Below, piece after piece: positions 37,561 through 57,566 of a DNA stretch of 64,000 bases. Both the position numbers and the translations under genes were made by a program. Position 1 is the first letter of the stretch; each line of letters starts with the position of its first letter. Where the stretch lies: positions 748,421-812,420 of the forward strand of contig JAKACP010000001.1 of assembly GCA_021821305.1 (NCBI GenBank). The letters are read 5' to 3'. The notes beneath the pieces were generated by a model. The model ran no database searches. It had not been told where the DNA came from and worked only from the letters and a program-made list of their open reading frames with translations. Source of the stretch: a bacterium (GTDB taxonomy: Bacteria; Patescibacteriota; Minisyncoccia; Moranbacterales; UBA1568).

Positions 37561-37808
37561 GGGGAGCGGCTTGCCGAAAGAAGGGTTCGATACCTATACT
37601 GTAGTATATACGTACGTCGACCCGAGCACCTGCCGAACCGGATAAGCGCTCTTCTCGGAGAAAATCCCTCGATACGCGGCCCCTGCCCGGTGTGGGCTCC
37701 CCCGTATATGCCGCCCGCACTCCCCTCACGAGCCCCTTATTTTCAGACGACAAGCAAAAAGTCTTTCTCTTATTTCAGGCATTGAGATATGAGACAGGCT
37801 CCAACACT

Positions 37809-39320
37809 ATGCAACCCATATTCACGCTCGATGAGGTATTCTCCTCCGCGCGTCGCGAGTATTCCTCCGACGATCGGAAGTTCATCGCGGCTGCGTTCCG
37901 CTTCGCCGACGAGGCCCATCACGGGCAATCGCGCAAATCCGGCGAGCCCTATGTCACCCACAGCCTCGCGGTAGCCAAGATCCTCGCGGATATCGGTATG
38001 GACAAGGTGACGATCGCTGCGGGACTCCTCCATGACGTCCCGGAAGATACCGAACGGACGCTCACCGAGATAGAGAAAAGATTCGGATCGGAAGTGGCGC
38101 ACCTCGTCGACGGCATCACCAAACTCGGCAAGATCAAGCTCCGCGGATCGCGCGAGGAGTATTTCCTCGAGAACCTGCGCAAGATGTTCCTCGCCATGGC
38201 GACCGACATCCGCGTCGTGATCATCAAGCTCGCGGACCGGCTCCACAACATGCGCACGCTCGGTGCCGTACGACCGGACAAACAGGAGCGTATCGCCCGG
38301 GAGACGATGGAAATCTACGCGCCGCTCGCGAACCGGCTCGGTATCGGCGAGATCAAGGGAGAGCTCGAGGACCTTTCGTTCCGCTATCTCGAACCGGAAC
38401 ACTACGAGGAGGCGAAAAAGATCGAGGACGCGCACGTTCGGGAAGGGAAATCCTACCTCGACCGGGTCATGGAACAGTTCAAAGTCGAGCTCGCGGAAGA
38501 CAACATCAAGATCGTCACCATCAACGGACGGGCGAAACACCTGTACCGTCTCTACCAGAAACTGAAGAAGCACGACATGGACCCGGGCCGCATCCACGAC
38601 CTCATCGCGGTGCGCATCATCGTTCCGGAAATCATCGATTGCTACGAGACGCTCGGCGCCATACACAAGCGATATCGTCCGCTCGTCGGCCGCATCAAGG
38701 ACTACATCTCGCTCCCGAAGCCCAACGGCTACCAGTCGCTCCATACCACCATCTTCGGTCCCGAGGGCCGCATCCTCGAGGTGCAGATCCGGACGCCGAA
38801 AATGCACGACGAGGCGGAGTTCGGTATCGCGGCGCACTGGATCTATACCGAGAAGGAACGCGGCGGATGGCGATCGCTCATCTTCGGAAAGAAAGCCTCG
38901 GCCGAGGCGAAGCCCAAGGATGTGGCCTGGGTCAAACAGCTCCAGGAATGGCAGAAGGAGATCGGCAAGGACAACGAGGAGTTCTGGCAGGGGCTCAGGA
39001 TAGAATTCTTCAAGAACCATATCTTCGCCTTCACGCCGAAAGGCGACATCATCCAGCTCCCCGAGGAGGCTACGCCGGTCGATTTCGCCTACGCGATCCA
39101 TTCGGAAATCGGAGATCATATCGTCGGCGCCAAGGCCGATCGGAAGATCGTCCCTCTCGACTATCAGATACGGAACGGACAGGTCATCGAGATCCTCGTC
39201 TCCAAGGAACGGAAGAAACCGAACCAGGACTGGCTCCGGTTCGTGAAGACTTCGAGCGCCAAGTCCCGCATCCGGCACTCCGGTCGCGAGGAGGACGCGC
39301 AGGCCGCCAAAGGACACTGA
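37809..39320 (+). CDS. rel: RelA/SpoT-family (p)ppGpp synthetase/hydrolase, short form (HD + synthetase + TGS; no ACT/ZFD C-terminus)
   Basis: HD motif (HDVPEDT), synthetase motifs (RIKD..SLH...RTPKMHDEAE), TGS (FTPKGDIIQLPEEATPVDFAYAIHS). Start at MQPIFTLDEV (37809). 503 aa. Confidence 0.85.
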   Translation: MQPIFTLDEVFSSARREYSSDDRKFIAAAFRFADEAHHGQSRKSGEPYVTHSLAVAKILADIGMDKVTIAAGLLHDVPEDTERTLTEIEKRFGSEVAHLVDGITKLGKIKLRGSREEYFLENLRKMFLAMATDIRVVIIKLADRLHNMRTLGAVRPDKQERIARETMEIYAPLANRLGIGEIKGELEDLSFRYLEPEHYEEAKKIEDAHVREGKSYLDRVMEQFKVELAEDNIKIVTINGRAKHLYRLYQKLKKHDMDPGRIHDLIAVRIIVPEIIDCYETLGAIHKRYRPLVGRIKDYISLPKPNGYQSLHTTIFGPEGRILEVQIRTPKMHDEAEFGIAAHWIYTEKERGGWRSLIFGKKASAEAKPKDVAWVKQLQEWQKEIGKDNEEFWQGLRIEFFKNHIFAFTPKGDIIQLPEEATPVDFAYAIHSEIGDHIVGAKADRKIVPLDYQIRNGQVIEILVSKERKKPNQDWLRFVKTSSAKSRIRHSGREEDAQAAKGH

Positions 39321-55594: not shown

Positions 55595-56947
55595 ATGAAT
55601 ACAACGTCTATGAACCCCGAAATCTTCAAGGCCTACGATATCCGCGGCATCTATCCGTCGGAAATGGACGAGGATACCGCATACCGCATCGGACGAGCTA
55701 CGGTCGAGCATTTCTCGCTCCGCTCGGTGGCCGTCGGCCGGGACATACGGACATCGAGCCCGGCCTTGTTCCGCGAGCTCGCGCGCGGGATCATGGATGC
55801 CGGGTGCGACATCCTGGATCTGGGACTCGTCACGACGCCGATGGTCTATTTCGCGGCGGGCCGGCTCGAGGTGGATGCGGCGATCTCGGTGACGGCCTCG
55901 CACAATCCCCCACAATACAACGGCATGAAGATCGCGCTCAAAGGCGCGCTCCCGGTCGGACTCGAGAGCGGCTTAGCCTCGATACGCGACATCGCTCTGC
56001 GTGGCGAGTTCGAGACGCCGGAACGGGTCGGAATCATGACCGAGCAGGATATCAAGCCCGCCTACTACAGCTATTTCGCCTCCTTCGCGGATATGCGGGA
56101 CAAGCGGTTCTCCGTCGTCATCGACACCGCGAACGCCATGGGCATACTCGAACTTCCGATTTACGACCAGTTCGCGGACAATGTCTCCGTCGTGAACCTC
56201 TACAACGACCTCACACGGCCGTTCGAGTGCCATGAGGCGAACCCGCTCAAGATCGAGACCATGGACGAGCTCCGGGAAAAGGTCATCGACACCGGCGCCG
56301 ACATCGGTATCGCCTACGACGGGGACGCCGACCGTATCGGCTTCGTCGACGAGCAGGGAACCCTCGTCCCCATGGACCTCGCGACCGCGCTCCTCGCGGA
56401 GATCATCCTCGCGAAAAAACCGGGAAGCACCATACTCTACGACCTCCGGTCGTCGCGCGCGGTCCGGGAGATCATCGAGGAAAACGGCGGACGGGCCCTC
56501 GAATGCCGGGTCGGCCACGCCAACATCAAGCGTCAGATGCGCACGGACGGAGCCGTCTTCGCGGGCGAGCTTTCCGGCCACTACTACTTCGAGGAGAACT
56601 CCTTCGCCGAAGCCGGGACGCTCCCCGCGATCCTCCTCCTCAACCTCATGGCCGAAACGGGGAAACCTCTCTCGGAACTCGTCAAGAAGACGCGCCGCTA
56701 CTTCCACTCCGGGGAAATAAACAGCGAGGTCGAGGACAAGGACGGCGTCCTCGCGACGCTCCGGGATCGGTACGCGGACGGGAGACAGCACGAGCTCGAC
56801 GGTCTCAAGGTCGAATACGACGACTGGTGGTTCAATGTCCGCCCGTCCAATACCGAACCCCTCCTCCGGCTCAACCTCGAGGCCGAGACGTCCGAGCTGA
56901 TGGAGGCGAAAAAATCCGAGCTCCTCGGTATCATCCGTGGGGAATAA
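55595..56947 (+). CDS. phosphoglucomutase/phosphomannomutase (alpha-D-phosphohexomutase family)
   Basis: Active-site ISVTASHNPPQYNGMK, metal-binding DGDADR, sugar-binding GELSGH-like motifs. Confidence 0.9.
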   Translation: MNTTSMNPEIFKAYDIRGIYPSEMDEDTAYRIGRATVEHFSLRSVAVGRDIRTSSPALFRELARGIMDAGCDILDLGLVTTPMVYFAAGRLEVDAAISVTASHNPPQYNGMKIALKGALPVGLESGLASIRDIALRGEFETPERVGIMTEQDIKPAYYSYFASFADMRDKRFSVVIDTANAMGILELPIYDQFADNVSVVNLYNDLTRPFECHEANPLKIETMDELREKVIDTGADIGIAYDGDADRIGFVDEQGTLVPMDLATALLAEIILAKKPGSTILYDLRSSRAVREIIEENGGRALECRVGHANIKRQMRTDGAVFAGELSGHYYFEENSFAEAGTLPAILLLNLMAETGKPLSELVKKTRRYFHSGEINSEVEDKDGVLATLRDRYADGRQHELDGLKVEYDDWWFNVRPSNTEPLLRLNLEAETSELMEAKKSELLGIIRGE

Positions 56948-57130
56948 GAGCCGGTCTAAAATCTCATGTCTTGGGAAAAGTCACTGATTTCGAGCGAAAA
57001 TCTTGAAAAGTGAGGAGGACTATCATGATAATCCGACGAGCTTTGAAAGGTTTGCAGCCGAAATCAGGGACTTTTACCAGACAAGCGAAGTTTTTTCCTT
57101 TACAAATGCGGTGAGATTTTAGACAGGCTC
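56948..57130. mobile_element. MITE-like element: 183 bp, 19-bp terminal inverted repeats (18/19 match), flanked by TAA/TAA, carrying SD + 29-codon ORF
   Basis: Left TIR gagccggtctaaaatctca (56948-56966). Right TIR tgagattttagacaggctc (57112-57130). TAA at 56945-47 and 57131-33. GAGGAGG-N6-ATG at 57012-57027, ORF 57025-57114 (MIIRRALKGLQPKSGTFTRQAKFFPLQMR). Confidence 0.6.
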
Positions 57131-57133
57131 TAA

Positions 57134-57165
57134 GAAAAAAACCCGTTCTCTATCGAGAACGGGTT
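57134..57165 (-). terminator. Rho-independent terminator for the 57186..57566 gene
   Basis: 11-bp stem aacccgttctc / gagaacgggtt with tatc loop, followed on the minus strand by T7. Confidence 0.65.
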
Positions 57166-57185
57166 CATGATTTCCGCCGCCACAT

Positions 57186-57566
57186 TCAGGAGGCGATTTT
57201 TATCTCCCGCATGAAGCTGTCCCATCGGGAGGAGCCTTTCTCACGGAATCGGACCGCCGTATAGAAACTGGCGACGCCGTCCCCCGGGATGAAGAGGCAT
57301 GGGTACGCTCCCATCTTCGGGCTTTCGAGACGGAGCATGTCCCCTGACTCGCTGTATGGGATATCTTCCTGCCAAAGGAAGCGTTTGACGCGCTCCGCGA
57401 TGTCCTCGGCGGTGCGCCACGGGAACTCGATCCGATACTCGATGATGCCCGCGGCCCGCATGATCACCTTGCGTACCCCTGGCAGGAGCGTTATCTCGCG
57501 GATTCCCAGTACGAATCGGGCGAATCGGGCGATCGTTTCGGAAAAACGTTTCGGAAAAGCCTTCAT
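57186..57566 (-). CDS. hypothetical protein (126 aa)
   Basis: ORF with downstream intrinsic terminator. No family recognised. Confidence 0.45.
   Translation of the reverse strand: MKAFPKRFSETIARFARFVLGIREITLLPGVRKVIMRAAGIIEYRIEFPWRTAEDIAERVKRFLWQEDIPYSESGDMLRLESPKMGAYPCLFIPGDGVASFYTAVRFREKGSSRWDSFMREIKIAS

Follow-up and report, generated by a model that had tools for sequence, protein, structure and literature searches.

A putative IS1031-type miniature inverted-repeat transposable element with a strand-specific hairpin interior in Patescibacteria

[quoted passage not shown] To our knowledge, the ERIC/IRU sequences of enterobacteria lack a clear target duplication, and a transposase has not been identified for them. 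Tourist-type MITEs, which are eukaryotic, create a 3-bp TAA/TTA target duplication and are mobilized by PIF/Harbinger transposases, the eukaryotic relatives of IS5. Correia-type hairpins in neighboring mRNAs can be cleaved by RNase III, and ERIC/IRU sequences are full-length imperfect palindromes that are transcribed in intergenic regions and at 3' gene ends and have effects at the mRNA level (PMC10969869). Members of the IS1031 subgroup of the IS5 family insert at 5'-TNA-3' and generate a direct repeat that is exclusively of 3 bp; the terminal repeat of one of them, ISLrh of Lacticaseibacillus rhamnosus, is GAACCTGTCTAGTATCT (PMC12016507). Here we describe an element at positions 56948–57130 of a 64-kb stretch of a Patescibacteria genome (hereafter the window; all coordinates are window positions), which lies directly 3' of a gene of the phosphoglucomutase/phosphomannomutase family and which resembles each of these systems in part.

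We conclude, with a probability that we put at roughly 0.85, that positions 56948–57130 are a MITE moved in trans by a transposase of the IS5-family IS1031-subgroup type, and that what constrains its interior is the folding of the + strand. Prokaryotic MITEs span about 50–800 bp (PMC11602168), and the element has the defining features of one, namely 183 bp without a transposase gene, TIRs of at least 10–15 bp and a target-site duplication; dispersed copies and filled and empty sites are seen for the family. In particular, it has in common with IS1031/ISLrh a TNA target with a 3-bp repeat and a terminal repeat of ~17–19 bp that opens GA(A/G)CC.GTCT....ATCT, but differs from ISLrh in length (ISLrh being about 860 bp) and in its lack of a transposase gene, in its Patescibacteria host, and in its interior, which is a strand-specific hairpin. 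Tourist-type MITEs, whose PIF-like family is among those named in an earlier note on this DNA, resemble it in their TAA/TTA duplication; however, the middle base of the target used by the element is also G or C (TGA, TCA), as in IS1031. Unlike Correia elements, to which it has no sequence similarity (no Rfam match) and which have documented promoters and an IHF site, the element has no conserved promoter that we could find, and unlike ERIC sequences, it belongs to a family for which target duplications and empty sites demonstrate transposition. The parts of the element, and the only other trace of the family in the window, are as follows.

56945–56947: left target-site duplication, TAA, which is the mutase stop codon
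56948–57130 (+): MITE proper, 183 bp, delimited by the extent of similarity among 60 copies
56948–56966 (+): left TIR, the 5' strand of helix 1, GAGCCGGTCTAAAATCTCA
56967–57083 (+): internal hairpin module, ~117 nt, with a conserved internal loop AGCGA / GCA and an apical region at 57005–57046
56967–56971/57079–57083, 56980–56995/57057–57071 and 56998–57004/57047–57053 (+): internal helices
57012–57114 (+): Shine-Dalgarno (SD)-like GAGGAGG (57012–57018) and 29-codon open reading frame (ORF; 57025–57114), judged fortuitous
57084–57111 (+): 28-nt asymmetric bulge on the 3' arm, with a T-run
57112–57130 (+): right TIR, TGAGATTTTAGACAGGCTC, which supplies the 3' strand of helix 1 and has one mismatch to the left TIR
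57131–57133: right target-site duplication, TAA, flanking the right TIR
37740–37801 (+): truncated relic of a second copy, its 3' ~60 nt, GACAAGC...TGAGATATGAGACAGGCTC

The earlier note had drawn attention to the TIRs (19 bp, or 19–20 bp by our count, with one mismatch and 145 nt between them) and to the TAA at either end, the left one being the stop codon of the mutase (pgm) gene, and all of these are present as it described. What it missed is that the entire 183 bp, and not only the ends, forms a single long imperfect hairpin. The folding energy of the region is −102 kcal/mol, against −58 ± 4.5 kcal/mol for shuffles (z = −9.75), and the 19-mer GAGCCGGTCTAAAATCTCA has 3 matches in the window at up to 3 mismatches, against 0.01 expected; with match number and fold stability so far above expectation, neither the TIRs nor the hairpin can be put down to chance. 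The element has a G+C content of ~42% in a genome of 60%, matches the hidden Markov model (HMM) of the family with an E value of 3.4e-46, and scores 186 bits on the + strand versus 40 bits on the − strand with the family covariance model. A census of the 64 kb with both models gave one intact copy, one relic and nothing more. The relic includes a 19-mer match with 3 mismatches, corresponds to positions 125–183 of the family HMM (E 2.6e-5; covariance model E 0.016), and has CAA instead of a T-N-A as its right flank; a RelA/SpoT-like gene, with its ATG at 37810, begins immediately downstream of it.

That the family is mobile is evident from the ends of its members. Across 60 copies, similarity starts at G(A/T)(G/A) and stops at (C/T)(T/A)C, and the trinucleotides outside these boundaries are identical in 47 of the 60 copies (10,000 permutations gave a mean of 20 and a maximum of 32). 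T-N-A, in the form of TTA, TAA, TGA or TCA, is found at >85% of ends, and its middle base agrees in 47/51 as a direct repeat and not as the complement, so that the match between flanks is not an extension of the stem. Moreover, copies that are 99% identical carry TGA/TGA, TAA/TAA or TTA/TTA, matched inside each copy, indicating that the right trinucleotide is copied from the target and is not borne by the element. Consistent with these findings, two insertions (L213:308–490 and L204:7827–8009) occupy homologous sequence at separate TTA sites, 30 bp from each other, and each of the two loci, less the element and one TTA, aligns base for base with the other and with two uninterrupted paralogs in L204; the sites held a single TTA before insertion. 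These findings demonstrate that members of the family transpose with duplication of a T-N-A target, and the MITE architecture with target duplication that the earlier note had proposed for the window locus holds. (The sequence in which these two independent TTA insertions are found, ~229 bp, is repeated at least three times in L204 (9695–9805, 9924–10034 and 7775–8060) and is present in L213:256–575; insertion may be favored there locally, or the region may just be AT-rich and promoter-like.)

A scan of metagenomes with a three-block pattern, taken from the alignment of the window copy with a copy in a distant metagenome-assembled genome (MAG), L066, yielded 82 stretches, and full-length homologs were found in 58 of these metagenomic loci (nhmmer E 1e-17 to 1e-39). 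Further copies, for which the earlier note had suggested a search, come to ~70 in total from Patescibacteria-type contigs, with up to two per contig, and to these the window relic is added. Ten loci hold two copies within 14 kb, two further contigs hold two copies each, and copy-bearing contigs have one additional copy per ~37 kb. Subfamilies that are 97–99.5% identical occur in unrelated flanks inside single metagenomes, and near-identical copies in differing flanks point to recent bursts of transposition. The G+C content of the hosts ranges from 33 to 60% while that of the element holds steady at 40 ± 4%; a family that spans hosts of such different base composition implies horizontal spread. 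Insertions are intergenic in 64 of 66 cases, with no bias in orientation relative to flanking genes (48 sense and 55 antisense, by crude gene calls). L162, a relative of the window with proteins that are 75–91% identical and with synteny to window positions 10.4–18.7 kb, carries two insertions that are not in the window; its insertion site gave no nucleotide-level alignment to the window, the intergenic DNA being too diverged. The three-block pattern matched nothing in viral contigs, and plasmid and phage collections held nothing similar to the element. (A shorter, two-block pattern of 17 bases had 81 matches in viral contigs, which are chance matches, none of them fitting the whole-element HMM.) Patescibacteria are not mentioned in a survey of MITEs in 183,232 genomes (PMC11602168) or in a 2024 review (PMC10969869), and a full-text literature search for 'miniature inverted-repeat' together with 'Patescibacteria' returned two papers, both of them incidental. 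The family is previously undescribed and widely spread, and is a new family of a known kind, that of MITEs.

The second part of our conclusion, on constraint of the interior through the folding of one strand, comes from a set of 51 distinct copies with a consensus hairpin of 56 pairs. The TIR is kept as helix 1 in these 51 copies, 96.4% of cells are paired, and double compensatory changes are found at 40 of the 56 pairs; the window copy has 52 Watson–Crick and 2 G·U pairs at these positions. The covariation score is 0.452, a value that 0 of 500 shuffles reach, versus 0.18 for shuffles and 0.03–0.10 for slid registers. After near-identical copies had been collapsed into 34 clusters, the terminal helix held 16 G·U and 13 A·C combinations (p 0.71) versus 89 and 12, respectively, in the internal helices (p ~1e-15; Fisher p 2.5e-4 for the difference between the two), p-values that are optimistic given the phylogenetic relatedness of the copies. 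The lack of asymmetry in the terminal helix indicates that the ends behave as double-stranded DNA sites. The internal pairs, on the other hand, tolerate G·U but not A·C, which argues that selection acts on the interior as it folds on the + strand, most simply in the form of RNA. Private mutations in near-identical subfamilies, at 5 versus 2, give counts that are small for judging a G·U bias. Because orientation to flanking genes is unbiased, read-through transcription alone does not explain this strand specificity. Three conserved blocks were required by the search pattern, and their conservation is partly an ascertainment effect; loops outside the pattern, namely GACAAGC, GACGA and GCGGTGAGAT, are conserved as well. 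The 3' bulge varies in length and sequence across the family, and in 45 of the 51 copies it contains a T-run (6 or more T within 8 nt) that mostly starts 3–6 nt past the internal hairpin. We found no conserved internal promoter; the lone σ70-like match, TTGAAA-18-GATAAT (57003–57032), is not conserved across subfamilies.

These features raise the possibility, which we regard as tentative and would not favor, that the family, instead of being simply an insertion sequence reduced by deletion, is a structured-RNA gene that moves. According to this idea, the TIRs would serve only for mobility, and the ~117-nt hairpin with its T-run would be a functional small RNA carried by the transposon, one that may regulate the cognate transposase or sequester a host RNA-binding protein or RNase, with the family spreading through or with the RNA. 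The idea accommodates the one-strand signature of the internal helices and its absence from the terminal helix, the compensatory changes, the conservation of loops that the search pattern did not require, and the T-run; an orientation that is independent of host genes fits a transcript specific to the element, and expanded variants add hairpin modules on both arms. Against it stand the lack of a conserved promoter (the σ70-like match of the window is not conserved in the largest subfamily), the ascertainment and kinship effects noted above, and the fact that stable stem-loop transcripts are general to MITEs (PMC10969869); the RNA is a candidate only. It is nevertheless an extension of the MITE interpretation and does not contradict it. 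A strand-specific hairpin would also be explained by mobilization through a single-strand HUH/Y1 transposase, as for palindromes derived from REP/RAYT or IS200/IS605, and a Y1-type motif, YCLSPNHYHLVL, does occur beside a truncated left end (L241:11.6–12.0 kb). We consider this improbable. HUH elements of the IS200/IS605 type are not known to have target duplications or TIRs, whereas the present element has TIRs, a true duplication that varies with the target among copies 99% identical, and a terminal helix that behaves as double-stranded DNA; the strand-specific fold is the only HUH-type trait that it shares. (The truncated end just mentioned, L241:11596–11994, consists of TTA followed by GTATCTCTCTCAAATCTCATGTCGA and then unrelated sequence that encodes the Y1/HUH transposase-like motif, and around it lie copies of a 25-nt repeat, CCTTGTACTCAGGAGCTTAGCTCCT.)

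There are two other explanations, and we think both of them very improbable. One takes the element to be a structured RNA, present once and inherited vertically, that is encoded after the mutase gene and could be a diverged 6S-like RNA or another housekeeping RNA. Its size of ~185 nt and its long hairpin do resemble 6S RNA, covariation is strong, and a homolog follows the mutase gene in the distant L066; however, that copy is an independent insertion (see below), contigs with two copies are common, the element is missing from 77 of 80 mutase loci, and T-N-A duplications together with empty sites prove insertion. Furthermore, no family in Rfam 15 (which includes 6S, SRP and insertion sequence-associated RNAs) overlaps the element at E ≤ 1, none matched the homologs in L066 or L020, and at the gathering score only tRNAs were found in the window. 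A 6S-like or known housekeeping RNA is therefore refuted by the multi-copy status of the family and its empty sites and by the lack of an Rfam match. The remaining explanation, offered in the earlier note as a hairpin-enclosed small-protein gene, is that GAGGAGG and the ATG drive translation of a 29-aa peptide under regulation by the hairpin. The arrangement is there as that note gave it, with the near-consensus SD motif 6 nt 5' of the ATG at 57025, 29 open codons encoding MIIRRALKGLQPKSGTFTRQAKFFPLQMR, and a TGA stop that is the first triplet of the right TIR, but it is not conserved. Only 2 of 60 copies have the ATG (others have GAG, GTC, AAG and so on), the longest ORFs of different copies differ in frame, strand and length, the 29-aa ORF has no Pfam match, and pairing within the apical stem takes up the SD-like motif as well as the ATG. 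The SD-like motif and the 29-codon ORF are by-products of the sequence of the apical stem and not a gene.

As to the parent of the MITE, the left TIR of the window copy, compared directly with the ISLrh repeat, has 13 of 17 positions in common with it, and the ends of the family as a whole have 11–14 of 17, in register from base 1; random 17-mers have a mean of 4.3 matches, and a fraction of 8.5e-5 reaches at least 12. The termini and the 3-bp TNA duplication point, as far as sequence resemblance can tell, to the IS1031 subgroup of IS5 as the probable parent family, and the suggestion of an IS5-like family in the earlier note thereby gains support from the hallmark of the subgroup and from likeness to a published repeat. 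Exact inner-end motifs outside the known copies led to no autonomous element. (In L181 and L162, further left-end motifs fall within coding sequence and match by chance.)

The window copy is inserted between a mutase gene and its terminator, in the following setting.

55595–56947 (+): host gene of the PGM/PMM family (phosphoglucomutase/phosphomannomutase), 450 aa, whose TAA stop codon is the left copy of the duplication
57139–57166: bidirectional intrinsic-terminator hairpin of the host, between the convergent mutase and 126-aa genes and outside the element
57186–57566 (−): 126-aa gene, convergent with the mutase gene

The assignment of the upstream ORF in the earlier note is confirmed by the presence of all four Pfam domains, PGM_PMM_I to PGM_PMM_IV (E 4.5e-34 to 3.6e-12). 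Deletion of the element and one TAA in silico restores GGGGAA-TAA-GAAAAAAACCCGTTCTC (an empty site also given with GAAAAAAACCCG), in which the terminator comes directly after the mutase stop codon, the same arrangement as in relatives. Before insertion, the terminator directly followed the stop codon of the mutase gene, and that this codon is still intact is due only to the duplication, which recreated it. By its mutase protein, the window belongs to Patescibacteria, and its genome is Moranbacteria-like. Among the mutase loci of the 80 best genomic relatives (MAGs labeled Candidatus Moranbacteria/Moraniibacteriota), the element is missing from 77. L066, whose mutase is 56% identical, has a full-length homolog 3' of its mutase gene, with compensatory changes in the stem and no ATG at the position of the ORF; it lies 40 nt past a TGA stop codon, at a different TAA. 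The different stop codon and different TAA identify it as an independent insertion and not a case of synteny. An identical insertion is carried by another assembly of the same strain (Logan, SRR13304626), in which contigs L244 and L245 break at the apex of the hairpin and overlap by 29 nt, equivalent to window positions 57017–57045. The break is an assembler k-mer artifact of the palindrome and not a polymorphism; since palindromic repeats fragment de Bruijn assemblies, elements of this sort are probably under-counted in MAGs.

Many relatives have something else at this position. In L001, L002, L003, L024, L032, L048, L061, L069 and L077, the first ~110 nt 3' of the mutase gene hold a different small unit, in which a TATACT-like box is accompanied by an ORF of ~15 codons (for example METRKIHFRKFSKAS or MSHKHFIITGLNEAK) and by a strong GC hairpin that has a T-run; this unit, which is not present in the window, may represent a small RNA, leader peptide or micro-protein. 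(Many of the MAGs, for example L001, L002, L005 and L008, are titled 'uncultured Bdellovibrionales bacterium' in third-party annotation. Their mutases are 70–82% identical to that of the window and they group with Moranbacteria MAGs, and the organism labels look unreliable.)

Variants of the element were seen elsewhere in the family. An internal-deletion derivative of ~105 nt (L182:5238–5345) has lost the apical half and kept both ends and a TTA flank, and expanded variants of about 230–275 nt (L202:9881–10133, L241:3885–4153 and L016:560–795) have extra GC-rich hairpin modules on both arms beside the conserved internal loop, in the manner of expansion segments. A shorter (~140-nt), more diverged member, L044:471–612 (−), scores 34.5 bits with the covariance model (E 8e-6); it comes directly after a TATACT box, and its flanks, TAA and TCA, do not match, so it is probably an old copy. 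Several copies (L188:2529–2820, L190:4070–4472, L236:2843–3112 and L241:2237–2513) are ~15–60 nt from tRNA genes or in tRNA clusters, and a match resembling a 5' fragment, L020:5941–5990, lies upstream of a tRNA-Leu gene.

Our findings are consistent with a model in which a DDE transposase of the IS5-family IS1031-subgroup type would move the element in trans. The transposase would bind the two ~19-bp TIRs as double-stranded DNA and make a 3-bp staggered cut at T-N-A, repair of which would duplicate the target; here the target was the TAA stop codon of the mutase gene, and the duplication regenerated it. Because the element sits between the stop codon and the terminator, the 3' untranslated region of the mutase mRNA should include a long, stable hairpin. 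Correia elements are the best model for the probable effect of the window copy on this transcript; by analogy with Correia and ERIC sequences, the copy probably acts as an mRNA hairpin and possibly as an RNase target.

Several observations weigh against this picture. The identity of the transposase is something that we infer from sequence: a full-length transposase with matching TIRs, as the earlier note had envisaged, did not turn up in the ~1.1 Mb of fetched sequence, which holds no TIRs 600–2600 bp apart with a TNA duplication and which was negative in a six-frame scan for an IS5-type C-terminal signature. The assignment to IS1031 therefore rests on the target duplication and on likeness to one published repeat. 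The comparison of pgm 3' regions that the earlier note had put forward showed the element to be missing from most orthologous loci but gave no empty site for the insertion in the window itself, exact-protein look-ups having led only to the same strain. Moreover, the window copy is 76% identical to its nearest sampled relative and, being accompanied by a relic as the only other trace in 64 kb, may be old and immobile. An unbiased orientation is awkward for any RNA role that depends on read-through, and transcription of the element and an effect on mutase expression are likewise deduced.

The finding that terminal pairs vary symmetrically while internal pairs vary as on one strand provides a clean computational way to separate, within a single repeat, constraint at the DNA level from constraint at the RNA level. 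It also bears on annotation, in that a strong SD motif and ATG within a repeat of this kind should not be called a gene. For the very small genomes of the candidate phyla radiation (CPR)/Patescibacteria, the family shows active, recent transposition. The element is in addition a candidate mobile structured RNA, and its strand-specific interior could make the family more than a plain MITE; were this so, it would represent a transposon-borne small RNA that spreads horizontally through Patescibacteria and is kept across hosts with G+C contents of 33–60%.

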